A stretch of 64,000 nt of DNA from Acholeplasma sp. (GCA_036677365.1 JAVBWN010000012.1:64001-128000), one strand, 5' to 3'; numbered from the stretch's first letter, positions 46,761-64,000 are shown. Numbers and translations: made by a program. The notes: a model not told the origin generated them from the sequence alone.

Positions 46761-46769
46761 AAAGAATGC

Positions 46770-46800
46770 GCGACTGGACATTATGTTTAGTCGCTTTTTT
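46770..46800 (+). terminator. Intrinsic terminator after hsdR
   Basis: GCGACTGGACA-TTA-TGTTTAGTCGC hairpin plus TTTTTT. Confidence 0.7.
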
Positions 46801-46963
46801 GTATAATTTTACTAAATACCCGAACTTTTACCCTTTTTTTGCGGACTTAGATTTGTAGGAGAATAAATTCTTTTCAATGCTACCGGCAAAACAAACTATA
46901 TCTTGCCATTTAAATATAGAAGGGAATGGAACAACTTACAAATTAAGGAAAGAGGTATTTACA

Positions 46964-48046
46964 ATGGATAAGAATAAAAAGAGTTCTATTGAGTGGGAAG
47001 ATGATGAAGACGATGGTCTACCAAGAATAGTTTCGGTTGCAGAATTTTTGGATAATCCATCTAAACTGCCTGAAGAAGTTATTGAAAGCGTTGTGCGTCA
47101 AGGACACAAAATGATGATCTCAGGTGCTTCAAAGTCTGGTAAAAGTTTTTTATTGATTGAATTGGCTATTGCACTAGCAGAGGGAACAAAGTGGCTTGGG
47201 TTTCAATGTAGAAAATCTAAGGTAATGTACATTAACTTGGAGATCGATCGCAATAGTCTTATTCATCGGTTTATTGACATCTATCAAGCGTTAGGTATCA
47301 AACCGAAGAACGCACATTGTATTTCCATTTGGAATTTAAGGGGATCCTCCAAACCACTCGATGACTTAATACCAGAACTTATCCAAAAAACAACTCTCAC
47401 AGGTGCTGATGTGGTTATTTTAGATCCTATCTTCAAAGTGATGATGGGTGATGAGAACAATGCAACCGATATGGCCAATTTAACCAATCTCTTTGACAAG
47501 ATTTGTTATGAGACTGGATGTACATTTGTCTATAGTCATCACCACTCCAAAGGAGCTCAAGGTTTCAAAAAATCAATGGATCGTGCATCTGGATCTGGTG
47601 TTTTTGCTAGAGATGCTGATGCCCAGGTGGATATGATTCAACTCAATCTTGTTGAAGTTTCATCACGTCATAACCCAGAAGAATCATCAGCGACTGCTTG
47701 GCGACTAGAAAGTAGTCTAAGAGAATTTCGAAGCTTTAACCCCGTTAACATATGGTTTGATTATCCAATACATAGAGTGGATGAAGCGGGAAAACTTAAG
47801 AAGAATTATGCTGATGGAGATCCGAGAGCTAACCTTACCAGAAGTTATAAACGAAATCAGACGACTGATTCGCGTAAAGAGGAATTTGATAAAGCATTTG
47901 ATACCAATAAGAGGAAAGATGGAACCTGTTTTGCCTTTGTACTTGCAGAGTATTTAGGGATTGCTGAAAGAACTTTTAGAGATCGAGTCATAGAATTCAG
48001 TGATGATTATGTCAATAAAAAAGGTATCGTATCACGTAAAAAGTGA
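46964..48046 (+). CDS. AAA_25 / RepA-like SF4 helicase of phage or mobile-element type, with C-terminal HTH
   Basis: GASKSGKS, YINLE, ILDP, HHHSKG, RASGSG..ARDAD; C-terminal LAEYLGIAERT; GAGG RBS before ATG 46964. Confidence 0.8.
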   Translation: MDKNKKSSIEWEDDEDDGLPRIVSVAEFLDNPSKLPEEVIESVVRQGHKMMISGASKSGKSFLLIELAIALAEGTKWLGFQCRKSKVMYINLEIDRNSLIHRFIDIYQALGIKPKNAHCISIWNLRGSSKPLDDLIPELIQKTTLTGADVVILDPIFKVMMGDENNATDMANLTNLFDKICYETGCTFVYSHHHSKGAQGFKKSMDRASGSGVFARDADAQVDMIQLNLVEVSSRHNPEESSATAWRLESSLREFRSFNPVNIWFDYPIHRVDEAGKLKKNYADGDPRANLTRSYKRNQTTDSRKEEFDKAFDTNKRKDGTCFAFVLAEYLGIAERTFRDRVIEFSDDYVNKKGIVSRKK

Positions 48047-48149
48047 AGTTGGAAGATAGGGAGAAATGAAATTTCGTCACGATTTCCTGAATTTGGCAGA
48101 AAGGATAAAAACACCTATCTTCCAACTACCAAAAAAACTGGCGGATAGG
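48047..48149. repeat. Iteron-like TTGG(C/A)AGATAGG repeats, including a perfect 14-bp inverted pair
   Basis: AGTTGGAAGATAGG 48047-48060 and its reverse complement CCTATCTTCCAACT 48114-48127; TTGGCAGAAAGG 48093-48104; TGGCGGATAGG 48139-48149. Confidence 0.65.
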
Positions 48150-48310
48150 CCTTATATAGTTGGATGTAACCAACACGCTAACGCATGTTTGTAGGATAGG
48201 GCTTGAAAGCCTGCCCTATCCCAAACAATGCATTATCGTTAGCACTCACCTTTCTTCCAAAGAAAAAACCAGAAAAAGTAAAAAACTGGTTAGCAATTAC
48301 AATTATTTCT
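48145..48310 (+). repeat. Copy 1 of a diverged ~160-nt direct repeat containing a long hairpin
   Basis: Hairpin GCTAACG...GGATAGGGC...GCCCTATCC...CGTTAGC (48177-48243); shares blocks with 49735-49892. Confidence 0.6.
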
Positions 48311-48422
48311 GTGAGTTTCATTAAATAGAGTTATGATAATCATCCCAAGCTAATAAATCCAAAATAACCTAATTAAAGTAATCATTGTTTGATATAATGT
48401 TTATAAAAGTGGGTGGTAGAGT

Positions 48423-48953
48423 ATGATAAAATTTCTAGATTATGTTGGAGATAAGGAGCAATTTGAAACGAAACTTATAAACTCTTGTAAAGATGGACTA
48501 AAGGCGAAAACGAAATTGATATATATTAAAAAACCTATAATAGAAGACAATAAATATGTCCTAAATTGCGAACAAAGTGAAATTATTGTCAATGATGAAT
48601 GTTCAATCAGTGGTAAGAGTAATGGCTATGTTTATGCAATATTTGATAAAGATGAGAAATTTTTATATATTGGAAGTACTCAAAAATTAAAAGAACGACT
48701 AAAACAACATTTGATTGCAAATCCAAGCTTTCATGTTGATAAGGAAAAAGCTAAAACATCAAGTAAAACTCATTCAAAGATTAATAAAGTTTTCGAACAT
48801 TTAAAAAATCTCTCTCTCAAGGAAAACAGAGTTCTCATGTATGGATACTTTAAAGTTGAACCGTGGTATTATTACACAGCAATTGAAAGTCTCCTAATTG
48901 AGAAAGTTCCTACAGCCTGGAACGATAGGGGAACCCCCCCAACTGGAGAATAG
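48423..48953 (+). CDS. GIY-YIG nuclease
   Basis: GYVYAIFD...FLYIGSTQKLKERLKQH...IESLLI...WN. Confidence 0.75.
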   Translation: MIKFLDYVGDKEQFETKLINSCKDGLKAKTKLIYIKKPIIEDNKYVLNCEQSEIIVNDECSISGKSNGYVYAIFDKDEKFLYIGSTQKLKERLKQHLIANPSFHVDKEKAKTSSKTHSKINKVFEHLKNLSLKENRVLMYGYFKVEPWYYYTAIESLLIEKVPTAWNDRGTPPTGE

Positions 48954-49155
48954 TTATGTATGTGGGTACCGACCGACGTCTATTTCATTTATTAGATAAT
49001 TTTTTGAGAAAATCTGGATATTTGAACTGGTAACATAAAAGTAGACATCACCAGAATTATAAAAAGATATTAATGATTTGTAATGTATTCAAAGAGGTTG
49101 CTATGAAATACGCTAATGTACAACGAATAGACCTGTAAAAAAAATCTATCCATGA

Positions 49156-49404
49156 GTGATCAATGTCGTAGAAACACCTGAGCAGTATGATATCAATAAT
49201 TTACCTTTGGTAAACGTCGATAGTGAAATACAAAATAGCAGTATTAAATCGAAGCATGCTACCCTAGATGAACTCGGGAGATTATCAAAACAACAGTTAA
49301 TCATGGAGGTCATTAAAGCAAGTATTGAGGCTGAAAGAGAAAAAAGGCATCGCAATAACAAAAACTTAGAAGTTAAAAATACGGGAGGATATAAATATGA
49401 TTAA
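49156..49404 (+). CDS. Small hypothetical protein (possible remnant)
   Basis: 82-aa ORF overlapping the next gene. Confidence 0.35.
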   Translation: MINVVETPEQYDINNLPLVNVDSEIQNSSIKSKHATLDELGRLSKQQLIMEVIKASIEAEREKRHRNNKNLEVKNTGGYKYD

Positions 49405-49717
49405 AAACAATAAACCATTTACAAATGAAAATGGTTGGGAAGATAGCGAACTAATCAGTGACCTATCATTAGAAAAGCAAGAGATTGTTTTGAACTGGAT
49501 AAAAAGTGGATTTATTCCAAGAAAAACAGAGAATCGCTCTCACTCAAGTTATGGTTTGAAACATTATCTGCAAGATGAAACAGGTATTTATCTTACGAAC
49601 AATCAATTTAAAGATGCTATGATGATTTGTGGATTCTATACTAAAGATCCTAACAAACTCAATTGGCACTATGGTATCAGTGAGAAATCACCAGTTTTTT
49701 TGAGAAATAAAAATTAA
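49397..49717 (+). CDS. Small phage/MGE-type hypothetical protein
   Basis: GGAGG RBS; SSYGLKH...YLTNNQFKDAM..CGF motif, which I recall from small phage proteins. Confidence 0.6.
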   Translation: MIKNNKPFTNENGWEDSELISDLSLEKQEIVLNWIKSGFIPRKTENRSHSSYGLKHYLQDETGIYLTNNQFKDAMMICGFYTKDPNKLNWHYGISEKSPVFLRNKN

Positions 49718-49734
49718 AAACACACTGTTATAAA

Positions 49735-49892
49735 AGCCGTATACATAATTGTTATCAGCAAACACAGACGAATTATTGTAGATTTGGGCTGATAACCTTT
49801 CCTTATCACATACACATGCATCAACGTCAGCACTACCTTTCTTCACAAAAAATTCAAAAAAGTAAAAACCGGGTTGCAATTACCATTAATTT
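49735..49892 (+). repeat. Copy 2 (diverged) of the ~160-nt direct repeat
   Basis: CCTTATCACATACACATGCATCAACGTCAGCACTACCTTTCTTC vs CCCTATCCCAAACAATGCATTATCGTTAGCACTCACCTTTCTTC; AAAAAGTAAAAACCGGGTTGCAATTACCATTAATTT vs AAAAAGTAAAAAACTGGTTAGCAATTACAATTATTT. Confidence 0.6.
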
Positions 49893-49968
49893 AGTTCGTT
49901 TCAAATTCTTAAACACCAATCATTAAGTATCGATCATTTGGTATAATTGAATCAAGTGAGGTGGCAAA

Positions 49969-50387
49969 ATGCACATTTGGTTAAAAGAAGAAAAAATCTA
50001 TTAGTACTGATGCATGACCTCTCTCAATTTACACTAGTTTTCTATGGAGTTAAGTAAAGCTACTTAAAAGAGTTTGATCAAATGATTAGTGTTGCAATGG
50101 CAAATAGTATGATGGATGTTGGATTCATACCTGAAAAAATCAGTGCATATCTTAATCATCAACTAGAAGCAATGACATTTAGTAAAACAAAAAGTAGAAC
50201 CTTGGTAACCAAATTAAATAAGGCTGTTTAAATGAAAGATCATGTATTAAGCACTGATGATTTTCATGAAGATGCTATTGAACAACGCCATGCAAGTTTA
50301 TTTAACAATCAGCTGCTCGTTTGCGAAGACAAGAATAAAATTTGTTATTATCCAAAAGAAAAACTGCGAGAATATATCGAAATTTAA
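49969..50387 (+). pseudogene. Degraded DUF6933-like (pRiA4b ORF-3 N-terminal type) gene
   Basis: GAGGTG RBS plus ATG; broken frames read RRKNLLVLMHDLSQFTLVFYGVK* and MTFSKTKSRTLVTKLNKAV*, with stops and frameshifts. Confidence 0.45.
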
Positions 50388-50534
50388 GATGTTGTAGACA
50401 CTAAAATGTCACCAACATCTTTTTTCCTCTTTCGAAAAGTTCAAATTCGTTTTAAGACTAGGTTTTTATTTAACGATTTTCATGTTACTATTAAAGTGGA
50501 TTAAACAATATAATAGGACTTGAGGACAATTCAA

Positions 50535-50684
50535 ATGAAAGAACTAACATCGCTTGCTGAAATATTTAATCAAAAGATTTTACGCATTCCAGATTATCAA
50601 AGGGGATATGCCTGGCAAGATGATCAGCTCAAGTATTTGGAGATGCCGTTATCCATGGAAATGCTAGAATCAAAGGTACCATGA
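50535..50684 (+). pseudogene. Truncated DUF262 (GmrS-like) N-terminus
   Basis: MKELTSLAEIFNQKILRIPDYQRGYAWQDDQL carries the IPxYQRxYxW motif, then loses similarity and stops after 49 codons. Confidence 0.7.
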
Positions 50685-50904
50685 AAGCGAGTAAACCAGT
50701 CACTGTAATTGATAATAGCGATGTAATCATGACTATGGCTGATAACAAAATCCATATCTATCAGAGTACAGTATACACTGAAGAAGAACTTCCAGATAAA
50801 TATAGAGGTGTTTTGGGTTTTAAATAAATCCTGTCATAATATACGATTGTAGACATAAATAATATATTAGATATATAACAATATTATGCTTTGTATAAAT
50901 CACT

Positions 50905-50948
50905 AACAGATAAGTAGATTCATTAGTCACTTCTTATCTGTTTTTTTT
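50905..50948 (+). terminator. Probable intrinsic terminator
   Basis: AACAGATAAG...CTTATCTGTT hairpin plus T-run. Confidence 0.55.
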
Positions 50949-51124
50949 GATCTCTAAAGTGATGTCTTATTTAAATAAATTCATTTAGTGTTATTAAAAA
51001 ACGCTTCCACATGGTAAAATTTAATTATAAGTGGGGACGAAATAAGATAAAAATCATTCATAGTTCTTGAGACTGTATTTTATGGCTTGGGATATGTGAT
51101 TTTTGATAAGGAGAGTACAATTGA

Positions 51125-54100
51125 ATGAGCATTATATTTATTGATTTTCAGAAAAACCTGACTGAAACGAAAACAAATAGATATTCCTTTTTTTGCTATT
51201 CATTAGAAGAACAGTATCAACACATCACATCGCGCATCCCAATAGAAAAAAACATAACAAATAGTTTACAAGAACTGATTGAAATCTGTTTCCCAACTAG
51301 GTTTGTTAAAAAATACTATTTTACATCATCCAATTTCAAGCGTGATAAGAGAGATGGTGTTAATGGAACAACCTTTTTAAACAATATCGTTATTAGACCA
51401 GAATTGACACCACAAATGAGGAGTTTCTTACCGGATAAAACCAACATCATCTTGATTGGTGATATTCAGGAAAACGATAAATACAAAACTTTCATTGTAA
51501 AAGGTATCGAACTCATTGATGAATTTATATCAACAACCAATGATATTCAAATCAATGATAGCTACTGTGCCCATTCATTTGGCATGGGACAATCCTATTA
51601 TGGTAAACCATATACGAAATGGACAATTGATAATCCGCCACATGAAAGCTCTTTATTCACACCAGATTTTGTTGCAAATCTGATAAAAAACTGTTATCCA
51701 ATGTCAACAACAAGTGTAGTTCAAGTACATAAAGCCATTGATCAATGGCAAACTTATATCACCTTTAGACAAAAGTATCTCGAATTACAAACACAACGTC
51801 AATTTCAACTAGCTCAAGTAGAATACATCACAGCGTATTCTATCAATCGTCAAACTTACAATAGAAATGCTTCACAATATGAAGAAGACATAATTGTCGC
51901 CCATGAAGACTTTAAAAAAGGGGAACAAATACTACTCAAAAATCCTGTACCAGAATCTGAAGAAATCAATTTGATTGCGACACACATTGACTACAACAAA
52001 AAAACCTTCATTGAAAATAGCAAGCTTGATAAGCGTGGTTTTTTAGTTAATCCTGAAGAAAAAACACTTAGAATCATGTCCAGAGAAAATGTCGCTATAA
52101 GTAAAGTTAAGCCAACAGTAAATAATTACGATCAAGTACTTAAAGATAGCTTTACACTTGACGACCGCTATAAACTAATCAAACAAGAAATCAAACCTGA
52201 CTGTAAGAAAATTGTGAAGGAATATGACGATCTAATCAAACAACAAACCAAAGCCATTCAAGACCGTTATCAAGCATTGATTCAACAAGAAACACAGTCC
52301 TTAAAGAAAATAGAACAACAACGATTGGATGATGAACTAGAATCTACCATCCAAACCATTCGAAGTGAGTATGTAAAAAAACTAGAAGAAATCATTCAAA
52401 AAAATGATGATATAGAAATTCAAAACGAAATCAATCGAATGACTGAAGCCAAAGATAAAGAACTCAACAAAGAACTCAATTCAAGAATCAATAACATTGA
52501 TAAAAAAGAAAAAGATAGAGAAAGCTTAGTCAAAACTTTAAAGGATGCGAAAGAAAATAAACTCAAAGCATTTACAATGTCTATCGATGTTAAAGGTCTT
52601 TATGATGCGAAATTCAATCGAATGTTAGAACAAGTGAGTAAAGATCAAAAAACCAAAAACGATCAATGGATTAAATCCTTTGAAACTTCTAAAAAACTAG
52701 AACTCAACACGAAGTATAGCAACCAAATCATTCAAGAAATTGATAAGAAAAAAGTTGAACTAGATGAGAAAAGGGATAAAGAAATCGAACTCAAAATTCA
52801 AAATGAAACGATTCTTCGATTTTCTATATACTATAAGTTTAATGCGGAAAATTTCAATATAAGTAATGTGCAGTTTGGCTCATACAAGTGGCTTATTTAC
52901 GACCATAGGGCAGAAAAGGCAAAAATTAACCGTCAGGAGAATGCCCTTAAAAATTTCTTTGAAGGCAATGTCAAAAATCCATATTTATCTACTTACTTAT
53001 TCGCACCTAAAGAACTAAAGAAGAACTACTATGATTTCACTGAGTGGAAGTGGTTTTTAGAAAGTCTTAATGATAACCAAAAACTCGCTGTACAACGTGC
53101 GGTAGCAAGTAAAGGTATTTTCCTTTTACAAGGACCTCCAGGTACAGGTAAAACCCAAGTAATAGCAGAAATTGTAGGGCATTTAGTTCAGGATGGGAAA
53201 AAGGTATTGGTCGCCTCTGAAACACATAAAGCAATTGATAATGTGTTTGAAAGATTACCACTGCTAGCGGATATACGTCCTTTACGTTTAATTGCAACAA
53301 GATCCAATAAATCATCCAACTTTGGACCAGAGAACTTGGTTGATAACTTCTACGAAAATATTTCTAAGAACATGAGAAATATCATCAGAACCTATGAAAA
53401 GTTTAGCGAATATCGTGAGAACTTTTTTGAGACTTATCAAAAACAAAAAGTATTAAGTGATCGTATCGCTGCCAATAAAGCACTCATTGACAAAATCGAC
53501 AAAGAGATTAGGAAACTTAATATAAACATCGATGAGTTGAGAGCAAGTAAGCAAAAAGAAACCGATAAAGTCGATGAATTGATGACCCGCAATGATGAAC
53601 AAATTCGTACTAGAAGACATTTAGAACGTGCCAACCTCAAATTGGATGATGATATTGACGGTAAACTAATCAGTGACTTCATCCAAGAGTCCATGAAGCT
53701 AATCAAGAAAGAAAAAATGTTCATTCTAGATGAAACAGGCTTAATCATACAAAAACTGTTGTTGGTTGATATAAAGACAATTACAGAAGAAATCAATGCA
53801 ATCCTCTCTTCATCTAATGAAATGAAAATCGCACAAGAAACAGATATTATTAGACAACAATTAAACCAATACAAAGATGACTTTGGCGATTGGAAAGAGA
53901 ACACAGAACAATTTTACAAGCCACTACAAGCCAAACTCAAGGCTTTGCTAGAGCATAAAACGAATGGGATTGATTTTTCAGAATTGAAAATTTCAAAAAT
54001 CATTCAACCACAATATTTAACCACCCCAATACCACTCAAAACTTTGATTGAAAAGTATCAAACAGAGCTGATTGATGTTCGAAACAAGTATTACATCATT

Positions 54101-55642
54101 ATTGATCAGACCATTGAATCCATCACCAATAAGATGAATGAAATGAATTCGAACATCACAGCCATTGAATCCAAGATGTTTAAGATTGGGGAAACTATTC
54201 GGACCCTACAAGACGATGATGGCTATAAGAGTATACAAGAAGATGAAGCGAGATTGAGACGAGAAATCGCGAAATTCATTGAGACCTTTAATGTCGCGAT
54301 TGAATATAAAAATTATAATGAGGCTTTAGAAAAGATATATCAGGAGTATGTCGATTTGGATCGAAACTTCAAACAAAAAGAAGAAGCGAACAAGAAGATT
54401 ATTCCTATATACAAGAAAATCAGTGATTATTTGTTAAAGGATGAAGTTAGAGAAGCTGACAGGAAGAAATACACTAAACCGCTATTCGATAAAGTAAACT
54501 TGTTTGGAATTACCAATACCTCCAGAGACAGTTTCGGTGAAGATTCGATGGTTGAACTCGAAAAATATAATCTCGGTAGAATTGATTTGAAAGAAGAAGG
54601 CATAGATGTGGTTATCATCGATGAAGTATCTAAGTCTAGTTTCCTCGATCTACTGATACCAATACTGTACGGTAAAACAGTTATCTTGGTTGGAGATCAC
54701 AGACAACTACCTCCTATGTATGAGTTTAGAAACTTTAGACAAGAAGATTATGACAATATCGATGAATCGATTTTAACCAAAGGGATGAATGAGAAATTCA
54801 AGCTTTTATATGAAGAAAGCTTCTTTAAGACACTCTTCGAACTTGTACCAGAGGACTATAAAGTAATGCTCAATCAACAGTATCGTAGCCATGAACATAT
54901 CATGCAAGTGTATAACTGTTTTTACAACCACAAACTTCAATTGGGCAAGAAAACTCAAAATAGCGAGAAGGAACATCACTTAAACATCATTTCGAATCAT
55001 CGTCAGATTATTGAACCGAAGAAACACGTTTATTTCGTGGATTGTAAAAAGTTTGAATCCAAAGAAACAGACTCGACTTCGATATATAACTCCAATGAAG
55101 CGGATGTCGTTGTTGAACTCATTAAGCAAATCAATGAATCCTATAAATCTCATCCAAACTTTAAACCGGAGATCTCAAAAGATAGAGACGAGCGTATGAG
55201 TCTAGGTGTCATTTGTACCTATGGTGACCAAGCACGTGTCATCAAACAAAAGATGAAGGCTGCTAAGATCAAATTAGGTATGTTTAATGATAAACCAGAT
55301 GCGAGAACCATCATTTCAACAGTAGATGACTTCCAAGGGGATGAACGAGATATCATTATTCTATCCATGGTTAGAAACCCACAAAATAGAGGTAAGAGTG
55401 ATCCTGGATTTGTTACTGCATATCAACGCATCAATGTAGCTTTATCTAGAGCAAGAAGACTACTCATCGTTGTTGGTAATAAGAGTTATCTTGAAGATAA
55501 AGGGGTCATTGATTTACCGGATGTCGATGGCAAGGGTAAAGATCAAAAGAACTTCTATGTGTATAAGGAAGTCATTGGTGCGATACACCAATATGGTACT
55601 GTCTTCGATGATGAGGATGTTCTTGGTGGAGGTAGAAAATAA
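51125..55642 (+). CDS. Large SF1 (DNA2/NAM7-like) helicase with long coiled coils
   Basis: LNDNQKLAV, QGPPGTGKT, ASETHKAIDN, IIDEVSK, VGDHRQLPP, QYRSH, STVDDFQGDERD, RINVALSRA; coiled coils upstream of motif I and inserted between motifs Ia and II. Confidence 0.9.
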   Translation: MSIIFIDFQKNLTETKTNRYSFFCYSLEEQYQHITSRIPIEKNITNSLQELIEICFPTRFVKKYYFTSSNFKRDKRDGVNGTTFLNNIVIRPELTPQMRSFLPDKTNIILIGDIQENDKYKTFIVKGIELIDEFISTTNDIQINDSYCAHSFGMGQSYYGKPYTKWTIDNPPHESSLFTPDFVANLIKNCYPMSTTSVVQVHKAIDQWQTYITFRQKYLELQTQRQFQLAQVEYITAYSINRQTYNRNASQYEEDIIVAHEDFKKGEQILLKNPVPESEEINLIATHIDYNKKTFIENSKLDKRGFLVNPEEKTLRIMSRENVAISKVKPTVNNYDQVLKDSFTLDDRYKLIKQEIKPDCKKIVKEYDDLIKQQTKAIQDRYQALIQQETQSLKKIEQQRLDDELESTIQTIRSEYVKKLEEIIQKNDDIEIQNEINRMTEAKDKELNKELNSRINNIDKKEKDRESLVKTLKDAKENKLKAFTMSIDVKGLYDAKFNRMLEQVSKDQKTKNDQWIKSFETSKKLELNTKYSNQIIQEIDKKKVELDEKRDKEIELKIQNETILRFSIYYKFNAENFNISNVQFGSYKWLIYDHRAEKAKINRQENALKNFFEGNVKNPYLSTYLFAPKELKKNYYDFTEWKWFLESLNDNQKLAVQRAVASKGIFLLQGPPGTGKTQVIAEIVGHLVQDGKKVLVASETHKAIDNVFERLPLLADIRPLRLIATRSNKSSNFGPENLVDNFYENISKNMRNIIRTYEKFSEYRENFFETYQKQKVLSDRIAANKALIDKIDKEIRKLNINIDELRASKQKETDKVDELMTRNDEQIRTRRHLERANLKLDDDIDGKLISDFIQESMKLIKKEKMFILDETGLIIQKLLLVDIKTITEEINAILSSSNEMKIAQETDIIRQQLNQYKDDFGDWKENTEQFYKPLQAKLKALLEHKTNGIDFSELKISKIIQPQYLTTPIPLKTLIEKYQTELIDVRNKYYIIIDQTIESITNKMNEMNSNITAIESKMFKIGETIRTLQDDDGYKSIQEDEARLRREIAKFIETFNVAIEYKNYNEALEKIYQEYVDLDRNFKQKEEANKKIIPIYKKISDYLLKDEVREADRKKYTKPLFDKVNLFGITNTSRDSFGEDSMVELEKYNLGRIDLKEEGIDVVIIDEVSKSSFLDLLIPILYGKTVILVGDHRQLPPMYEFRNFRQEDYDNIDESILTKGMNEKFKLLYEESFFKTLFELVPEDYKVMLNQQYRSHEHIMQVYNCFYNHKLQLGKKTQNSEKEHHLNIISNHRQIIEPKKHVYFVDCKKFESKETDSTSIYNSNEADVVVELIKQINESYKSHPNFKPEISKDRDERMSLGVICTYGDQARVIKQKMKAAKIKLGMFNDKPDARTIISTVDDFQGDERDIIILSMVRNPQNRGKSDPGFVTAYQRINVALSRARRLLIVVGNKSYLEDKGVIDLPDVDGKGKDQKNFYVYKEVIGAIHQYGTVFDDEDVLGGGRK

Positions 55643-57795
55643 TGCAAAAGTTCGAAACCAGTTTTGCCTTTCCCCTCATCAAAATGAATACGTTAATTAC
55701 GTATACTGAAGTAGAAAAGCCTACAGGTATTAGCTACTTCCTTTTGGTGCTGATCAATGAGTATTCAGACAAGTCCGTCAAAATCAGTCATTTATTAAAA
55801 CAATTTGGTGTACCCAACGATTTACATGAATTATTCGCTGATGAAATTCATGCCTTATTAAAGGCTGAAATCATAACCACTGAATATGGATATAATAAGA
55901 GTTATTTCCAGGAGTATCCACTAGGAAAATTCCAATTTACCATGAAAGGTAAAAAAGTATTTTTAGATGAAGCGATACCTTCAAATATCAATAAAACGTT
56001 AAAACAAGCGGTATATTATAATCCTGCCTTGAATCAATTAACATTAACAGTAGATCGAGACTATGGAAACATCGACACTTCTGTCCTTGGTGAAGCCTTT
56101 TTCAAACAATTTTCATACCCAGATAATGACCTAATCGAAGAGTATTATGGCACTAAGAAGGGGAATGGTCTTTCGATTAAAAAAGAAGAAATTATCTTAT
56201 CTGCCATTTTGCAAAATATAGATTACAACTTCATCACGTACCCAGTTACCATTTTGATTGAAGAGAACGATCAAATTGGTTTTGAATTTGAAGACATGAA
56301 GATTAAAGCTTTCTTTGAAAAATATTACACCAAGGAAATGATTAAAGACTTGATTCAGGTTAAAAACAAGTTCACTTTCACAATACCAGAAACGATTCAA
56401 ACCAAACTATCCACGATAGCCCCTTATAACCATATCTATTTACCAGAAGCGATTAAACAAAAACAAAATGAAAAATCATTGATTGATGTCAATCTAGATC
56501 GTTATCCAACCAATAATGCAAAATTGTCATATACATCAAAACCGATTCTAGCCAAAATCAATTCTGCCTTTGCTTTTGTAAAAATCATTGATATGAATCA
56601 TGCTTATGGCTATATCCCTGCAGGTATTACTTTAAGCAGTCATATATTTGGTCCGATTCAACTCAAACTATTGATTGAAATGTCACTTGATAACCCTCAG
56701 GTAAAAGCGATATTAGGCGATTTGGTGGATCAGTATAAAGAATTTGTATACGATGACAATGAACCATGGAACTATAAGTCATTATTACTTTTATGCAAGT
56801 TGAGCAATAGTCTACCGATGATTCAGGGGAAAATAGATCATTGGATGATTGATTTATCAAATGATGACCAAATTTCTATTTTAGGCAAAATTAAAGACAA
56901 ATCTGTCAATGAACCATTGGTATATGACTTTATTAAGAAAAAAGGATTAAGTCTATCTGATGCTTACTTTAGTGATATAAACTTAGACAACCTCGAAGTC
57001 AAATTAAACAATTCAGGGTGGATTTATAAAGCGAATAAACTATCGGATATTCAAGTACTACAAACCATATTTAGTAAGATGGATGTTTCAAAGTTGAACA
57101 AAATCAAATTGTACAATGCATTGGAGTCGTTAGGTTATCAATCCGAAGACATCCTTACATTCATGAAAGATTTCGTTCTTGATATCATCAATGACAATAA
57201 ATCATCTAATGGGCTTAGTAAATTGAAGTTGACACTCGATAACGCTTTAAAGACGCTCCAATCTATTACAGGTATCAAAGATCCCCATAATTACGCAATG
57301 AAAGATATTTTCCAAAAAACAGATTTTATTGACCATTATAGGGTCTATAGTGAATCCTTAAAATCATTATCTTTTATTGAAAAATACAACAAAGAGTTAC
57401 TCTCTGTATATAAAGATTTCGATCGATTGTTTTCGAACTTAAACGATCTCTTTGTCTTAGAGAGAAATGCACTTGGAAATCCGAAAGCAATCAATGAAAA
57501 ACTGATTGATTCAAAAATCAATTCAGGTGATCTTTTAAGTGCCGTAACCAACCTCTACGTTAAGTTATCATATATATGTAAAACTAAACTCAATATCAAT
57601 GAAGATTTTGTTCAAATGATTCAGACTTTGGAAAAGAAAGATTACATCGATAAGGACGAAACTGCAGTTCTTCATCAGTTCAGACAATACCGTAATGATT
57701 TAGAACATGCGAATGAAGTAAAGAAAGCATTAGATAAAAAGGATTTACAAGCGGTAAAAAGCATTGTCTTCAAATTGGAGGGTATGAAACTATGA
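55642..57795 (+). CDS. Hypothetical protein: possible N-terminal winged helix, C-terminal HEPN-like domain
   Basis: TAATG coupling to the helicase; C-terminal LHQFRQYRNDLEH (RxxxxH) in a ~100-aa helical domain; N-terminal FQFTMKGKK wing-like segment. Confidence 0.6.
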   Translation: MQKFETSFAFPLIKMNTLITYTEVEKPTGISYFLLVLINEYSDKSVKISHLLKQFGVPNDLHELFADEIHALLKAEIITTEYGYNKSYFQEYPLGKFQFTMKGKKVFLDEAIPSNINKTLKQAVYYNPALNQLTLTVDRDYGNIDTSVLGEAFFKQFSYPDNDLIEEYYGTKKGNGLSIKKEEIILSAILQNIDYNFITYPVTILIEENDQIGFEFEDMKIKAFFEKYYTKEMIKDLIQVKNKFTFTIPETIQTKLSTIAPYNHIYLPEAIKQKQNEKSLIDVNLDRYPTNNAKLSYTSKPILAKINSAFAFVKIIDMNHAYGYIPAGITLSSHIFGPIQLKLLIEMSLDNPQVKAILGDLVDQYKEFVYDDNEPWNYKSLLLLCKLSNSLPMIQGKIDHWMIDLSNDDQISILGKIKDKSVNEPLVYDFIKKKGLSLSDAYFSDINLDNLEVKLNNSGWIYKANKLSDIQVLQTIFSKMDVSKLNKIKLYNALESLGYQSEDILTFMKDFVLDIINDNKSSNGLSKLKLTLDNALKTLQSITGIKDPHNYAMKDIFQKTDFIDHYRVYSESLKSLSFIEKYNKELLSVYKDFDRLFSNLNDLFVLERNALGNPKAINEKLIDSKINSGDLLSAVTNLYVKLSYICKTKLNINEDFVQMIQTLEKKDYIDKDETAVLHQFRQYRNDLEHANEVKKALDKKDLQAVKSIVFKLEGMKL

Positions 57796-58907
57796 GTTAC
57801 TCAGAAATGATCAATTATGAAGCATTATCTCTTAAAGCAAAAGCCAAATGTAGTGTTGCACAACAAGCAATCGCACACATTGAACGTTTACTAGAATCGA
57901 TTAAAGCAAATGCTCAAACGATTCCATCCAAAAAGCTGATAGAGTACGAAAAATCACTATTAAAAGAAAAAGAAGACATTTTAAAACGAATTAAATCTAT
58001 AGAACAAAAGGCTGAAGAACAAGCAAAAATTGGCGTTAAAAGGATGAAGATCGGCACATCAGAAATGTTGATATATGAACATCGTAATGATCTCATCTAT
58101 GAAAGCGATAAACTCATAACGTTAGCTAATGAATTGATGACTACAAAACTTGAAGTGATGAATAGTTACATCAATGAAGAGCTAATCAATATCGCTAACA
58201 ATTCACAACAACAGTTAATGAATGCTGCTCGAGGTGTCATTAGCTTGCAACAACAGTTACTCAAACAACTGGATACCATCGAAGACATCACGTTAAGAGA
58301 ATCGGTTTATCGTGTAGCGATTGAACTCGAAAATCAGGAGAAATCATTTGAAGAATTGGTAGAATTAGGTCGAGAAAAACTCAAAGGACTCACTGAAAAC
58401 CTGTTAGAAAAGCACAGACAAACCATTCTTGAAGGCATTAGACGTGATATGGAGGCTTCTCGAGTGGATGCGTCTACGATTAACCAAACACTGAACTCAA
58501 ATAGTTCAGTTCAAGAAATCCGTGCTCAAGCAACCCATGAAATTGTAGGCGAAGAAGTCAGAAAAGAGTCGTTAAAAATCATTCTTAAAGCTATTGAGAC
58601 CAGAGGGTTCATTGTGGATAGAAAGAACAGCATTAAAATCAATAAGGATAAAAATGAAGTCCTTGTTATTGGTAAGAAAGCCAGTGGTCAAACAGCAGAA
58701 TTTAAAATATATCTAGATGGTCGTTTTTCATATAAATTTGATGGATTTGAAGGTCAAGCATGTCAAAAGGATATCGAGCCATTCATGAATGACTTAGAAG
58801 ATATCTATGGTGTGAAGATTACAGGTAGAGTAGAACTTTGGAAAAATCCAGATAAACTCTCTTCACAAAAATATCAAACTTATAATACCAATAAAGGTAA
58901 AAACTGA
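57792..58907 (+). CDS. Coiled-coil protein with a C-terminal DUF2997-like segment
   Basis: ATGA overlap; long heptad region; C-terminal FKIYLDG...DGFEGQACQKDIEPFMNDLE. Confidence 0.55.
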   Translation: MSYSEMINYEALSLKAKAKCSVAQQAIAHIERLLESIKANAQTIPSKKLIEYEKSLLKEKEDILKRIKSIEQKAEEQAKIGVKRMKIGTSEMLIYEHRNDLIYESDKLITLANELMTTKLEVMNSYINEELINIANNSQQQLMNAARGVISLQQQLLKQLDTIEDITLRESVYRVAIELENQEKSFEELVELGREKLKGLTENLLEKHRQTILEGIRRDMEASRVDASTINQTLNSNSSVQEIRAQATHEIVGEEVRKESLKIILKAIETRGFIVDRKNSIKINKDKNEVLVIGKKASGQTAEFKIYLDGRFSYKFDGFEGQACQKDIEPFMNDLEDIYGVKITGRVELWKNPDKLSSQKYQTYNTNKGKN

Positions 58908-58918
58908 GGAGGATTCAT

Positions 58919-60745
58919 ATGTCAATCAATACCAGTTTTGCAAAAATCAAACGAGAAATTGGCATCAAGAAATGCATCATCATCGATGGGAATGTTGGCG
59001 ATGTCTATTTGAATGATAAAGGTAAAATACAAAATATCAAAGAATCGTTGGATAGCATCCTCAAAGACTTAAAATACGATGACATCATATTTTGGGACAG
59101 AATTGATGGTGCAGTAGGGAATTTACAAAACTTACAGATCATCGATGAAACCAAGGTTGAAGGTGACAACTATCTAGATGAAGCTGATGAAGTTACACCT
59201 GAACCGAAAACAGGATTATTTAAACAGCCAGCGGAAATCTTTAATATTGTTTTGAAGAACTTGACCAACCCAAAAAAGAAAATTGCTTTTGTCTTAAACT
59301 GGGCGGAATACTTATTTGATGGTGGTGGCCAACAAATCGCAGGGGAAGGGTTAGATAATATTACCATCTTAGGCAAAGCACTCAAAGACAAAAAGATTGA
59401 TTACTACAATCCCGATGTGAATGAAAGTACCATCATATTCATCACCAACAAAATTTCGTTGTTTCCAATCTCGTTTTATCAAGGTAATCCAGAAGTAAGT
59501 TCAATAACATTGACTAAACCAGATCGTCTTGAACGTGAAAGAATGATGGAAAAAATCGAAGATTCATTCAATGTAAGAGTACCAGGAAATGTAGCACTGA
59601 TGTCCAGTGAAAAGAAAGCCGAATATGTAGATATGCTTGATGATTTTACAAATCGAGAAATCATTCAGATTTCCAAATTGTCACGAAAAGAAGACAAAAT
59701 GACTTTTGATAAATTGTTCTATCTGTTCAAATACGGTGAAAAAGAAAACCCATGGGAAAAACTCGATTACAATGAAGTCAAAAACATCAAGAAGCGTCTT
59801 TCTGAAAGAGTAGTTGGACAAGAAGAAGCCATTGAGAAAATCGAAAAGACCATCGTTAAAGCCTATATGGGTTTAACCGGAATTCATAAAACATCCTCTC
59901 GAAGTATGCCTAAAGGAATATTCTTTTTTGTCGGACCAACGGGGGTTGGAAAAACAGAATTATCCAAAGCTTTGGCTAAATTTCTATTTGGTGATGAACA
60001 AGCATGTATTCGCTTTGATATGAGTGAATACGCAACCGAAAACAGTGATCAAAAACTGATTGGTGCAGCTCCTGGTTATGTCGGTTATGAAGAAGGCGGA
60101 CAGCTTACCAACGCAGTTAAAGAGAAACCTTTCAGTGTTATCTTATTCGATGAAATTGAAAAAGCAGCCAAACCTAACCCACGTATATTAGATATATTCC
60201 TACAAATATTAGAAGATGGTAGATTAACCGATTCAAAAGGCGAAACCGTCTATTTTAGCGATACCATCATCATTTTTACCTCTAACTTAGGGGCTTCACA
60301 AGTTCAGATATCAGCAGATCACGAAGACGTTTCTAAACAATTCATCAAGATTGTGAAAGAGTATTTTGATACTGAAATTAGAAGACCAGAAATACTCGGT
60401 AGAATTGGTTATAGCAACATCGTACCGTTTAATTTTATCGTCGATAAAGAATTCGTCATGAAGATTGCGAAATCCAAACTTAAACCGATAAAAGCTGGTA
60501 TATTCGAGAAGTATCGCATCGATTTAGAGTTTGAAGATGAAATGAAGTTTGTTAACTACATCTCCACCAAAGTCGATATTGCTAAAGGTGGTAGAGACAT
60601 TTTAAATGCCATTAATGATCATTTATTAGAACCTCTAGCCATGTTCATGTTTAGCAATAAGAATGATTTATCCAGTTTTAAAGGCGGAAAGATTGTGGTT
60701 AAACTCACAGGAAGCGGGTTAAATTTTGGATTCGATATTAACTAA
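58919..60745 (+). CDS. ClpB/ClpA-D2-like AAA+ ATPase with a degenerate N-terminal AAA-like domain
   Basis: VVGQEEA, GPTGVGKTELSKALA, RFDMSEY, LIGAAPGYVGYEEGGQLT, LFDEIEKA, DGRLTD, RPEILGRI; N-terminal IIIDGNVGD lacks a Walker A lysine. Confidence 0.85.
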   Translation: MSINTSFAKIKREIGIKKCIIIDGNVGDVYLNDKGKIQNIKESLDSILKDLKYDDIIFWDRIDGAVGNLQNLQIIDETKVEGDNYLDEADEVTPEPKTGLFKQPAEIFNIVLKNLTNPKKKIAFVLNWAEYLFDGGGQQIAGEGLDNITILGKALKDKKIDYYNPDVNESTIIFITNKISLFPISFYQGNPEVSSITLTKPDRLERERMMEKIEDSFNVRVPGNVALMSSEKKAEYVDMLDDFTNREIIQISKLSRKEDKMTFDKLFYLFKYGEKENPWEKLDYNEVKNIKKRLSERVVGQEEAIEKIEKTIVKAYMGLTGIHKTSSRSMPKGIFFFVGPTGVGKTELSKALAKFLFGDEQACIRFDMSEYATENSDQKLIGAAPGYVGYEEGGQLTNAVKEKPFSVILFDEIEKAAKPNPRILDIFLQILEDGRLTDSKGETVYFSDTIIIFTSNLGASQVQISADHEDVSKQFIKIVKEYFDTEIRRPEILGRIGYSNIVPFNFIVDKEFVMKIAKSKLKPIKAGIFEKYRIDLEFEDEMKFVNYISTKVDIAKGGRDILNAINDHLLEPLAMFMFSNKNDLSSFKGGKIVVKLTGSGLNFGFDIN

Positions 60746-61319
60746 TCAAGTCAAATTTAATGTAGCCAGAATCATCACAGTTTCTGAAGTAGAAGGACCA
60801 TTTAAACGCATGGCCATTTGGTTTCAAGGGTGTGATATCAACTGTTTTGGTTGTTGTAATCCAGAGTTACAACTTTTTAAAGTTGCTAATATCATGACAT
60901 TTGAACAGATTCTTCAATTAATCATTGAGACTAAGGATAAACACGGCATTGAAGGTGTGACTTTTTGTGGTGGGGAACCCTCTCTTCAACAAAACCTACA
61001 TGTATTGGGTTTAAAACTTAGAGAGCTAAACATTGGAACCATTATGTTTAGCGGAAAGTACATAGAGCAACTACCCAAAGCACTGGTAGAATCGATGGAT
61101 ATGATTTTGGATGGCCCGTTTATTCTAAGTAAATTAGAAAAAGAAAGAAGATTACTCGGTTCAACAAATCAAAGAATCATAAATATAACCGATCGCTATA
61201 AAAAACATACGAATTGGTTTTATGATAAGAAAGAAATGATTCAAGAAATAAACATGTCTGAGGCACTCTATTTTAATGGGGATGCATTGGTTGATAATGA
61301 CCATAAATCAGAAAGGTAA
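60726..61319 (+). CDS. NrdG/activase-like small radical SAM protein
   Basis: EGPFKRMAIWFQGCDINCFGCCNP, GVTFCGGEP, DMILDGPF, GSTNQRI. Confidence 0.85.
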   Translation: MDSILTNQVKFNVARIITVSEVEGPFKRMAIWFQGCDINCFGCCNPELQLFKVANIMTFEQILQLIIETKDKHGIEGVTFCGGEPSLQQNLHVLGLKLRELNIGTIMFSGKYIEQLPKALVESMDMILDGPFILSKLEKERRLLGSTNQRIINITDRYKKHTNWFYDKKEMIQEINMSEALYFNGDALVDNDHKSER

Positions 61320-61325
61320 TGAAAA

Positions 61326-63089
61326 ATGGCTAAGTTAATCCCCGATTTACAAAAAATAAAAACAAGTATGAGACCTAAACCAGAAATTGGTGAAATGTTT
61401 TTACTCGAATTATTAGCTAAGGAACTTAGTGATGAATGGCATGTTTATTTTCAAGTTAGCATAGATGGAAGCCACCCTGATATTGTTTTGGTGTGCCAAA
61501 ATTTTGGTGTAATAATAATTGAAGTAAAGGATTGGAATTATAATAATTATCACATTTTAAGTGAAGATAATAGGGACAAATGGATATTAAAATCAAAAAA
61601 TCAAAGAATTAAATCACCAATAGATCAAGTAGATGAGTATCGCTGGTTAGTGAAAGAAAAATTAGTCAGTATTATTAATGAAGATGAGTATAGTAATGTG
61701 ATCAGAAATATTGTCGGTATGGTGTATTTTCATAACTTTACGAAAACCGAGATTAATCATGTAGCATCTGTAAGTTATAAATGCGAGAATTACATTAAAC
61801 TATTAAACCGTGAAATATGTTTGGAGTCGAAATTTATGTCAATTCTTAACAAATTCATTTTACATAAAAACAGAAAATGTTTTAGTGAACAAGTTATAGA
61901 AGGGTTTATAAATGTATTTAAACCTTCCCTGAATTGGTTGGACACTATGTTTCCCAATGAATTATTTCATTTTAATAAAAAGCAATTAGAACTATCTATA
62001 TCCAAACCAGAGCATATCAAATTTCGAGGTGTAGCAGGTAGTGGGAAAACATTTGTTTTAGCAAAAAGAGCGATAGACGCATATAAAAAGAAGGGACAAA
62101 AAGTTTTAATTCTATTTTTCAATATTACGATTACTAACTATTTCCACGATAAAATATCTGTTTTTAGAGAAGATGTAAGCTGGAAAGCTTTTGAAATTAT
62201 GCATTTTCACAAGTTAATATATAACAAAATAAATTTAGATATTGGCTATTTCGAAGATATAAATACCCGCATACAAGAAATTATTAAAATGATTAATTCA
62301 GGATATCAAATTGAACAGTATTCAACAATTTTGATTGATGAAGGGCAAGATTTTGAATTACTATGGTTCGAGTTTATAAAAAACTATTTGTTAGCACCAA
62401 ATGGTGAATATGTTATTTGTGCTGATGAAAAACAAAATGTATACAACAAAGTGCTCGAAGATAATAAAATAAAAACAAATATACCAGGTAGGTGGAATGA
62501 ACTCAATGAGTCATATAGATTGGCAGGAAATATAAAAATGGTCGTGCAAAATTTCCAAAATAAATATTTTTTTGATGAAGACTCTATAATCGAAAGCAAC
62601 ATTAAAATGTCGTTATTTGATCCCCAGATTTTTTATTATCGCACATTAGAACATAACATAAATGATGATGTGATAGAAGTAATTCATAAAATGAGAAGTG
62701 AAGGAATTAAGGATAGCGACATATGTATTATCACTGTTCAACATAGTACTTTGAAGTCTATTTCTAACACGTTGGAAAATCAAAACATTAAACATTATTA
62801 TGTATCAGAACAAAAAAGGAGTAAGCAAGGTCTACATTTGAACAATGATTTAATCAAACTCGTTTCGATATATAGTTTCAAAGGTTGGGAATCTAGTTCT
62901 ATCATCTTAATAATTGAGGACAATATGAAACCCGAGTTGTTATACACAGGTATGACAAGAGCTTTTACTAATCTATACATTATTAATTCAATCTATGAAT
63001 ACGAAGAATTCTTCGATGAACAAGAACAGATTGGTTTATTGACAGTAATAAAAAAGTCACGACCTTTATATGAAGAGTTGCCATTTTAA
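61326..63089 (+). CDS. NERD nuclease fused to a UvrD-like SF1 helicase
   Basis: HPDIVLV...IIIEVKDW...SPIDQV (NERD); GVAGSGKT, LIDEGQDF, ADEKQNVY, SYR, SFKGWES, LYTGMTRA. Confidence 0.85.
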   Translation: MAKLIPDLQKIKTSMRPKPEIGEMFLLELLAKELSDEWHVYFQVSIDGSHPDIVLVCQNFGVIIIEVKDWNYNNYHILSEDNRDKWILKSKNQRIKSPIDQVDEYRWLVKEKLVSIINEDEYSNVIRNIVGMVYFHNFTKTEINHVASVSYKCENYIKLLNREICLESKFMSILNKFILHKNRKCFSEQVIEGFINVFKPSLNWLDTMFPNELFHFNKKQLELSISKPEHIKFRGVAGSGKTFVLAKRAIDAYKKKGQKVLILFFNITITNYFHDKISVFREDVSWKAFEIMHFHKLIYNKINLDIGYFEDINTRIQEIIKMINSGYQIEQYSTILIDEGQDFELLWFEFIKNYLLAPNGEYVICADEKQNVYNKVLEDNKIKTNIPGRWNELNESYRLAGNIKMVVQNFQNKYFFDEDSIIESNIKMSLFDPQIFYYRTLEHNINDDVIEVIHKMRSEGIKDSDICIITVQHSTLKSISNTLENQNIKHYYVSEQKRSKQGLHLNNDLIKLVSIYSFKGWESSSIILIIEDNMKPELLYTGMTRAFTNLYIINSIYEYEEFFDEQEQIGLLTVIKKSRPLYEELPF

Positions 63090-63132
63090 TATTTGAGTTT
63101 TTTCTATTATAAAACAGTATAGAAAGTAAGTG

Positions 63133-64000
63133 ATGAAATTGATTAGATTAGACAATGATTTAAAAAAAGACTTTATACAATTCTTAGAGAATAGAGCAAA
63201 ACCTTCTCCAGGTCCTGATAAATACATTGACCAGACATCTGAAAAAATTAATATTTATGTGGAAGAGAGCGATTTTTTCAAGTATTTAACATATTCACTT
63301 CTAGACATTGAAAAATACTACTTTATTAACCAAAAAGTGGATTTGAATCAATTCGCTAAAGACTATATAGATTTTCTAGATACAGATGTCGATGATTTGT
63401 TTATAGAACATGCGGATGAGCTGTCTGACTATGATTATTATAATCCAAAGCTAATTATTGATGTGTATAAAAACAGTGTTCCAGTCATATTTAATCAAAA
63501 GGATAAAACTAGAGTTGAATTTAACGAAATCGTCTTAAGAAGAATTGTTGGGGATTTCAGTTTTGATTCATCATCTATAACCAAACTAGAAAAATCAATA
63601 ACTGACTTGTACAAAAATATTGCAAGCATGTATTTGAATAATGTTATCTATAGGCTTTTAAAATTAGATCACTTTGCTTTTTTATTCTGCTATGATGTGA
63701 TAAAAAAAAGCCAAAAGAATTCTCATAAGTGCATTTCATTTTTAGGGAAAATACATTTCATATCATTTGATTGTAATAGTATTGACCCCTTTAGTTATTG
63801 TTTTGAGGAGGATTTTCCAAAATACCTCGAAGCACTTGAACTTATTAATTTAGAGGATTTTCGAGAACAAAGTCGTTTAGAGGATATGTATGTGAATTTA
63901 TTCAATATTTCAGAATATTATGAAAGATACAATACAACTTATACAAGATTTCCACTTGCAATTAATCCATACATTAAGTCAAATGACAAAAATACCTATA
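63133..64000 (+). CDS. Hypothetical protein, 3'-partial
   Basis: Not in the ORF track; ATG 63133 (MKLIRLDNDLKKDFIQF...) appears to stay open to the window end. Confidence 0.6.
   Translation, partial: MKLIRLDNDLKKDFIQFLENRAKPSPGPDKYIDQTSEKINIYVEESDFFKYLTYSLLDIEKYYFINQKVDLNQFAKDYIDFLDTDVDDLFIEHADELSDYDYYNPKLIIDVYKNSVPVIFNQKDKTRVEFNEIVLRRIVGDFSFDSSSITKLEKSITDLYKNIASMYLNNVIYRLLKLDHFAFLFCYDVIKKSQKNSHKCISFLGKIHFISFDCNSIDPFSYCFEEDFPKYLEALELINLEDFREQSRLEDMYVNLFNISEYYERYNTTYTRFPLAINPYIKSNDKNTY

Follow-up and report, generated by a model that had tools for sequence, protein, structure and literature searches.

A widespread five-gene operon joining a Upf1-like helicase to a ClpB-type AAA+ protein and an orphan activase-type radical SAM enzyme

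Six closely packed open reading frames (ORFs) in an Acholeplasma sp. genome raise the question of how many of them belong together and what they might do. They lie in a stretch of 64,000 nucleotides (GCA_036677365.1 JAVBWN010000012.1:64001-128000), hereafter the window, from whose first letter all positions are counted. A first-pass annotation of this sequence had read the six genes (g1 to g6) as one coupled defence or conflict machine made of a superfamily 1 (SF1) helicase, a protein with a HEPN motif, a coiled-coil protein, a ClpB-like AAA+ protein, a radical S-adenosylmethionine (SAM) enzyme and a NERD-UvrD protein. As a possible mode of action it proposed that the AAA+ protein would remodel the coiled-coil protein or set the HEPN effector free, and that the radical SAM enzyme would alter a partner. 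We find that positions 50624-61319 are occupied by a copy of an operon of five genes (g1 to g5), widespread and still unnamed, and that g6 is a separate neighbour. Taken as a whole, our reading of the cassette as a five-gene RNA-directed conflict or defence system is held with moderate confidence.

Extent and composition of the conserved unit

The six ORFs were recovered where the first-pass annotation had placed them, all on the plus strand: g1 at 51125-55642 (1505 aa), g2 at 55642-57795 (717 aa), g3 at 57792-58907 (371 aa), g4 at 58919-60745 (608 aa), g5 at 60726-61319 (197 aa) and g6 at 61326-63089. The junctions read from the sequence were also those described. g1 and g2 share one nucleotide (TAATG) and g2 and g3 share four (ATGA), g3 and g4 are separated by an 11-nt gap, g4 and g5 overlap by 20 nt, and a 6-nt gap precedes g6. 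The 20-nt overlap presupposes a TTG start of g5; a nearby in-frame ATG is absent, and the upstream TTG start is also found in several homologues. Scans for promoters and terminators gave signals not above those of shuffled sequence, and Rfam found no family within 48900-64000, leader included. Contigs of one metatranscriptome (X16) span g1 to g5, which is a weak hint of expression since DNA carry-over is possible.

The related loci were collected solely through g3, so that all co-occurrence counts given here are conditional on that gene. The genome scan, made on one genome per species, returned 29 g3 loci in Acholeplasmataceae, Clostridia, Bacilli and metagenome-assembled genomes of Bacteroidales. 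The order g1-g2-g3-g4-g5 was complete in 19 of these 29, and eight were cut by contig ends and held consecutive members only. The two others (L019 and L028) are decayed: g1 and g2 are missing, g3 is truncated, g4 and g5 behind it are intact, and unrelated genes (an ABC transporter and others) lie upstream. All five viral-contig loci held g1 to g5, and the same operon was seen in a distant g3 clade from metagenomes, represented by the best 80 of 156 confirmed loci. Over the 113 loci with g3, g4 came directly after g3 in 101 of the 102 with room for it (the exception being L113) and g1 lay upstream in 76 of 77 (the exception being L019). g5 followed g4 in 82 of 85 loci by script and in 85 of 85 once the three misses had been inspected: a second radical SAM ORF had been picked in L052 and L090, and g4 is frameshifted in L087. 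In every locus g5 overlaps or abuts g4. The proposal that a multi-component cassette co-occurs elsewhere was thus borne out, the five-gene order recurring in more than 100 independent loci, and this recurrence makes the arrangement more than chance.

The inclusion of the NERD-UvrD gene in the machine did not survive the comparison. It is true that g5 and g6 are spaced by just 6 nt and that no terminator-like site lies between them on the plus strand, as a six-gene machine would have it. But none of the 29 genome loci contains g6 or the following ORF, g7, and a tblastn search with both over the related loci then collected matched only the copy of the window's own genome. Near-identical relatives moreover part from the window at the end of g5: contigs and reads of other samples with at least 90% identity cover 50624-61291 and then run into unlike sequence, with a loose end at 61291 and a collapse of depth from 61296 in four runs. 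Finally, g6 by itself matches the PADLOC single-gene candidate C3a187 (NERD plus UvrD, 1.3e-58). On the other side, contigs of other samples at the same identity start or diverge at 50624/50632 (loose ends in X4, X16 and X17) and cover 50624-51225. The left boundary of the shared unit is thus at about 50624-50632, and a leader (50624-51124, plus strand) travels with the cassette. We regard it as nearly certain that g1 to g5 form one conserved unit without g6, and a six-gene machine as very improbable. An ORF of unknown family follows g6 at 63130-63999 and runs off the window; it is absent from the related loci, and it and g6 probably represent a candidate defence unit of their own, of one or two genes.

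The five proteins

An indication of what the cassette acts on comes from g2. Its AlphaFold 2 model (mean predicted local distance difference test score, pLDDT, 88.4) starts with a beta-hairpin and a winged helix (residues 25-111), continues with a beta-rich and helical middle part and ends in a HEPN domain (residues 613-717, 57478-57792). In a structural comparison with VIA, residues 25-111 matched winged helices with Z of 7-8.5 (Hel308 winged helix 8.5, MarR/PadR 7-8). Residues 613-717 matched HEPN structures, first 1wwp (Z 10.5, root-mean-square deviation 3.2, 104 residues aligned), then 5yep (10.0), 8xdj (9.2), 7ae2 (9.0), 2hsb (8.7) and Csm6 6tug (8.2); helical bundles can reach such Z by chance, and the weight of these matches lies in their uniform family identity. 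The first-pass annotation had noticed a terminal RxxxxH motif, and we found it as R684-N685-x3-H689 (57691-57708), invariant in 20 of 20 homologues and in 16 of 16 of a set with viral loci. In HEPN proteins, by definition, the motif is Rx4-6H and a polar residue follows the arginine, and DUF4145 is one of their families, as given in passages of PMC3710099; the g2 motif fits that definition. DUF4145 (PF13643) scored 21.1 bits (3.4e-4) on the window protein, 23.5 bits on the homologue of L038 and 16.9 bits on that of L036, for a gathering score of 23.1. The HEPN assignment of g2 is thus sustained by motif and fold, with DUF4145 scores around the gathering score. Profiles of g2 and of its HEPN part gave nothing meaningful against the PDB, and Foldseek with the whole g2 model gave helical-repeat noise only.

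The proteins found in the position of g2 (slot 2) keep their beginning and change their end. When 75 of them were clustered with BLAST, a single cluster took in 74 of the N-terminal 200 residues, whereas the C-terminal 220 residues fell into nine clusters (37, 26, 4, 2, 2, 1, 1, 1 and 1 members). Judged by representatives, the two large ones correspond to PIN_4 (E 1e-15 to 5e-20) and to HEPN/DUF4145, one small one is S1, and the others match no family. The putative slot-2 RNase is HEPN in the window and PIN in most other lineages. A constant N-terminus with a varied C-terminus suggests that g2 docks by an unvarying module and carries a head, directed at RNA, that can be exchanged, and swapping among HEPN, PIN, S1 and other domains without known family points to RNA as the target.

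The helicase g1 is Upf1/MkoA-like (Pfam AAA_11 2.3e-22 and AAA_12 1.2e-44), with coiled coils, a split 1A domain and an N-terminal domain of no known family. Its Walker A motif (G670-T677) lies at 53132-53155, and the SF1 motifs are kept in at least 95% of 46 homologues. It matched NCBIfam TIGR00376 at 4.9e-57, under the cut-off, and the MkoA models of PADLOC at 2.7e-90 and 1.3e-84, in the helicase core only; the best stretch joined g1 residues 1160-1488 to positions 792-1098 of a 1112-position profile, and the N-terminal parts were unmatched. Pfam has no family for the N-terminal ~640 residues. Among 24 fragments from the N-terminal parts of g1, g2 and g4, it detected only an S1 RNA-binding domain, fused to the g1 N-terminus in L103. 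g1 also matches NF040671, a "PLuB system helicase-like protein", at 3.1e-49, far under the cut-off of that model (999); "PLuB system" as a phrase was absent from the literature searched.

g3 combines a coiled coil with a C-terminal domain that is new. Its N-terminal half is a helical bundle or coiled coil that differs between clades; residues 245-371 (58524-58904) contain a conserved alpha-beta4-alpha domain, followed by a disordered conserved tail with the motif W350-x-NPD. At least 95% of 73 sequences keep E254, R257, F273, V290, G299, Y314, Y319, G321, C324, D327, Y339, W350, N352 and P353, several of them in the loop G318-D327 (58743-58772). The profile of the C-terminal domain recovered 393 clusters at 50% identity (308 with E at or below 1e-10), nearly all of 340-400 aa with the domain at the C-terminus, and a collection of 5.8 billion proteins held 325 relatives at E ≤0.001; the 120 listed among them bore no Pfam domain and no name beyond "hypothetical protein". 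The window protein has no Pfam family either. With its model (pLDDT 71.9), Foldseek gave no match at E ≤0.001 and a wide VIA search gave generic helical-bundle matches only, confined to residues 1-147; the sequence profile found nothing meaningful in the PDB, and a phage collection contained no g3 match. A link to DUF2997 was discarded as weak (one of 25 members, E 0.005), and three long relatives (P0129, P0149 and P0201), considered as informative fusions, turned out to be coiled-coil duplications or a probable chimera. In the genome loci g3 and g2 are 34-62% and 24-52% identical, as against a mean column identity of 88% for g4.

That last figure, over 22 homologues, makes g4 an extremely conserved protein. 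It carries one AAA_2/ClpB-D2 module (Pfam AAA_2, 2e-52), in which Walker A (GPTGVGKT, 59933-59956), Walker B (LFDEIE), the GYVGY pore loop (60074-60088), sensor 1 (TSN, N456) and sensor 2 (GGR) are invariant in 22 of 22 sequences; these motifs are kept in at least 95% of 61. The intact ClpB-D2 module reported in the first-pass annotation is thus real. The degenerate AAA+ ring that it saw in the N-domain is not supported, an hhalign comparison of the N-domain with the C-domain giving a probability of 0.4. The N-domain (residues 1-285) is conserved and matches no recognised family; an Atlas search with it returned AAA-bearing leads only (0.81-0.87). The ClpB model TIGR03346 reached 256.9 bits for a cut-off of 1232.1 and aligned g4 residues 288-602 with ClpB residues 557-851 (D2) only, so that g4 does not qualify as a two-ring ClpB/Hsp104 disaggregase. 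In PADLOC it matched PDC-M37B (4.4e-34) and DolB (1.9e-21) in the AAA core.

The last gene, g5, encodes a minimal radical SAM enzyme of the activase type (Pfam Fer4_12 2.5e-23, Radical_SAM 2.8e-10). The cluster motif C36x3C40x2C43 (60831-60854) and GGEP (G82-P85) are invariant in 22 of 22 sequences, and are kept in at least 95% of 55. Its nearest solved structure is PFL-AE (E 5e-11), with an EGPxKR loop aligned to DGPGIR, and the family, at ~180-200 aa, has no extra substrate-binding domain. One explanation would be an ordinary NrdG or PflA serving a glycyl-radical enzyme encoded elsewhere, and NrdG (TIGR02491) is indeed the best NCBIfam match (1.4e-20). This match scores 73.8 bits for a cut-off of 126.1, however, and TIGR02826 (56.1 for 151.7) and TIGR02493 (52.4 for 231.75) also stay under theirs, so that g5 belongs to none of these activase equivalogs. 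As first noted, no NrdD or PFL partner is encoded in the window, nor any Gly_radical protein in or adjoining the cassette. In the whole genome, which measures 1.97 Mb and is 99.86% complete, NrdD had no match, which disposes of the idea that g5 complements nrdG for an unlinked nrdD. The one PFL-type Gly_radical gene of this genome lies on contig 24, directly followed by its own activase. With no NrdD and a sole PFL that has its own activase, g5 is an orphan; considering also its constant coupling to g4, we give the ordinary-activase explanation next to no credence.

Other radical SAM genes were seen around the cassette or in the window. Extra ones lie downstream in five PIN-type loci (L045:14014-14772, L052:4082-5976, L054:7968-9398, L099:5536-7077 and L119:12460-14442), and that of an Acinetobacter plasmid is accompanied by a small AAA ATPase. 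L050 and L064 have a second short g5-like ORF directly after g5. A 301-aa radical SAM-type ORF of the window (28665-29570; weak Fer4_12 match at G000:C12:92698-92955, E 1.9e-6) is unrelated to the cassette.

Genomic settings and possible function

Upstream of the cassette, the window encodes the HsdR subunit of a type I restriction-modification system (43599-46760; PADLOC REase_I, 7e-295), then an AAA_25 ATPase (46877-48046), a GIY-YIG protein (48423-48953) and decayed gene fragments; the region 43599-48953 is a defence-island or mobile-element setting. The next 1.4 kb (49717-51125) contain no ORF of at least 60 aa, gene fragments only. At about 50536-50632, the start of a DUF262/GmrSD-like protein (MKELTSLAEIF...IPDYQRGYAW) is broken off at the loose end 50632, the point from which contigs of other samples take a different course; a GmrSD-like gene seems to have been invaded, or in part replaced, by the cassette or its leader. 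Elsewhere the flanks are varied, with serine recombinases, GmrSD/HEC-05, a type IV restriction enzyme with a C5 methylase, type IIG restriction-modification, SIR2 with HerA, PDC-S01, AbiD and spbK. By our reading of up to four nearest large flanking ORFs, 19 of 42 loci had a specific PADLOC defence match, a raw count without background control that leaves out generic ABC-ATPase, methyltransferase, DEDDh, UvrD and radical SAM matches. The scan covered 128 of 170 candidate ORFs, 22 from seven near-duplicate loci and 20 others being left out.

The position immediately before g1 is occupied in several ways. Ten loci (L003, L004, L007, L010, L011, L016, L017, L025, L026 and L029) have there, at 1-108 nt, a conserved protein of ~175 aa with a helix-turn-helix-like N-terminal segment and a coiled coil; the window is without it. 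Unrelated genes of ~300 aa precede g1 in other loci, themselves preceded by CARF in L020 and L068, and WYL regulators are found nearby in L057 and L065. L029 has a full spoVAD (1079-2065) upstream of its island and a second copy of the 3' part (profile positions 200-329) downstream (14386-14823), which looks like a target duplication from an integrating element.

g3 relatives also occur on ten plasmid records, and the five genes were complete in all five that were opened (Acinetobacter, Moellerella, Polaromonas, Photobacterium and Leisingera). PGAP names g1 to g5 there, in turn, "AAA domain-containing protein", "PIN domain-containing protein", "hypothetical protein", "AAA family ATPase" and "4Fe-4S single cluster domain-containing protein". 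In the window's phylum the g3 domain was present in 39 of 399 scored genomes, and in its own genus in one of five other genomes.

From these contexts, and from the domains and motifs of the five proteins, we infer an RNA target, a defence role, the binding partners and a radical SAM substrate for the cassette, which would fit together as follows. The Upf1-like g1 would engage RNA. g2 would dock through its conserved N-terminal winged-helix module and bring in an exchangeable C-terminal RNase. g3, g4 and g5 would form an invariant control module: g3 may be the coiled-coil scaffold, with its variable half matched to the type of g2 and its constant C-terminal domain in contact with the conserved engine; g4 would work as a hexameric unfoldase of the ClpB-D2 type, remodelling the complex or resetting it; and g5, being small enough to act on a macromolecule, could make a licensing radical modification on a protein or RNA partner. 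A defence or conflict role is somewhat probable, and RNA has a better than even claim to be the target. That the substrate of g5 is a protein of the complex is a tentative proposal, standing a little below even, and that it is g3 in particular is doubtful.

Several points weigh against this reading, besides the dependence of the co-occurrence counts on g3 and the uncontrolled flank count. One is a Mollicutes family (TGA read as Trp, genomes of 0.9-2.2 Mb) in which the cassette is fixed: 32 of the 54 genomes sampled carry it, and within one genus all 18 do. Six loci from four genera (L130-L135, in genomes G017, G146, G015, G121, G200 and G342) all show g1-slot 2-g3-g4-g5, in the order leuS-cassette-folD-fhs in one genus and with rplM-rpsI directly upstream of g1 in three. 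Such syntenic fixation between housekeeping genes is unlike a typical patchy defence system. The slot-2 proteins of these six loci have no recognisable nuclease and no RxxxxH. The motifs of g4 and g5 are all kept (those of g5 in six of six loci), and g3 lacks the W-x-NPD tail and carries a loop G[YF][ED]x-H-x-H-D-x-D, compared with G[YF]EGQAC-x-K-D elsewhere, with Cys324 replaced by His and Gly321 not kept. Gly321/Cys324 was therefore rejected as a universal radical SAM target, the loop being changed while g5 is intact; the Cys-to-His exchange beside a kept Asp would rather suggest a site for a ligand or a metal. Several of the hosts, such as Acinetobacter and Polaromonas, are aerobes, which speaks against a long-lived glycyl radical.

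The cassette is thus mobile and island-borne in most lineages and a fixed core locus in one, and it might instead be a housekeeping machine for RNA surveillance or ribonucleoprotein quality control, joining Upf1-like decay, an unfoldase and a radical SAM modifier, that has also spread on mobile elements. Its fixation beside rplM-rpsI and leuS in small genomes, the completeness of the Mollicutes loci, the extreme conservation of g4 and the RNA-related HEPN, PIN and S1 domains with a Upf1-like helicase all agree with such a role. Against it stand the patchy distribution outside that family (in the window's own genus as in its phylum), the presence on plasmids and beside restriction-modification, GmrSD, SIR2-HerA, AbiD and CARF genes, and the swapping of effector domains, which is typical of conflict systems; we consider a housekeeping role rather unlikely. 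A further alternative concerns the substrate of g5, which could be nucleic acid, RNA or DNA bases or sugars being modified or damaged in a modification-dependent system with the helicase and the AAA+ protein as translocases. The absence of a glycyl-radical enzyme from the cassette, the non-universal candidate target residues in g3, weak similarities of g5 to QueE (7.5e-5), MoaA (1e-6) and pVip (5.6e-4), and the further radical SAM genes downstream in the five PIN-type loci argue for it. The best matches of g5 are nevertheless the NrdG/PflA activases, its EGPxKR loop aligns to that of PFL-AE, and it is small, with no added substrate-binding domain, so that we judge an action on nucleic acid distinctly unlikely.

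Returning to a defence or conflict system directed at RNA, the cassette would add a widespread family, the g3 domain profile alone covering 393 clusters, with hosts among Bacillota, Mycoplasmatota, Bacteroidota and Pseudomonadota, conjugative plasmids of cultivable bacteria included. Its fixation by ribosomal-protein genes suggests a function strong enough to retain 10-11 kb in a 0.9-Mb genome. It is also a bacterial pairing of a Upf1-like helicase with PIN or HEPN RNases, and a testable case of an activase role without a glycyl-radical enzyme. One could go further, and we do so as speculation with a low probability, in proposing that g3, g4 and g5 are a new switch by post-translational radical chemistry: an orphan activase would act on an immune or RNA-surveillance component or on RNA, a ClpB-like unfoldase would present or recycle the substrate, and the switch would be old enough to have been fixed as a core function in one reduced-genome lineage. 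Such a switch would be the first activase-type radical chemistry outside metabolism, and part of a prokaryotic Upf1 plus PIN/HEPN decay machine paralleling eukaryotic nonsense-mediated decay.

Relation to known systems

The first-pass annotation could match the locus to no named system, and we found none in PADLOC-DB 2.0 (2023), NCBIfam 20.0 or the PGAP annotation; the gene set was not described in the full-text literature searched, subscription journals, supplements and current DefenseFinder models being outside the scope of these searches. In named systems there is no counterpart to the core, which couples a ClpB-type unfoldase to an activase-type radical SAM orphan and a protein domain not described before.

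g5 resembles the activases of the PFL-PflA and NrdD-NrdG pairs in its CX3CX2C and GGEP motifs, its activase-type loop and its minimal size. It differs from them in having no protein with a Gly_radical domain in or next to the cassette, and no motif of the RVxG[FY] type was seen in g3. With pVips it shares the occurrence of radical SAM enzymes in defence contexts, but its matches are marginal and partial (5.6e-4 and 6.6e-4), short of significance; it is ~60-100 aa shorter than their models of 257-262 positions and is always coupled to an AAA+ protein. Dodola (DolA plus DolB) and the PADLOC candidate PDC-M37 have a ClpB-like single AAA+ protein as g4 does, but their models leave the g4 N-domain uncovered, and neither DolA (DUF6414) nor PDC-M37A matched any cassette protein in PADLOC.

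Two further comparisons are with Mokosh (type I with MkoA and MkoB, type II with MkoC) and with CoCoNuT type II/III (CnuH-CnuE-CnuB/C). In Mokosh, as here, a large Upf1/COG1112-type SF1 helicase leads the operon, and both are presumed to target RNA and are found in defence islands. The cassette is however without the phospholipase D (PLD) nuclease MkoB, PADLOC giving no MkoB match for g2 to g7 at E ≤0.01 and Pfam no PLD domain, and Mokosh is without an AAA+ unfoldase, a radical SAM enzyme and a g3-type protein. CoCoNuTs, as presented in passages of PMC11090510, share with the cassette a UPF1-like helicase, a HEPN RNase, extensive coiled coils, an AAA+-class motor, overlapping reading frames, CARF-type regulators in some loci and a predicted RNA target. 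The motor of the cassette is of the ClpB-D2 type instead of the McrB GTPase, there is no McrC/DUF2357 partner, and no radical SAM enzyme belongs to CoCoNuTs as those passages present them; Pfam found no McrB or McrC family on g1 to g7, the sole trace being an NCBIfam McrB match (E 0.0059) at the P-loop of g4. Having no MkoB, no McrB/McrC, no DolA and no glycyl-radical enzyme, the cassette lacks the defining partners of Mokosh, CoCoNuT, Dodola and the glycyl-radical enzyme pairs alike. Its presumed way of working comes closest to the helicase-plus-HEPN logic shared by Mokosh and CoCoNuT type II/III.

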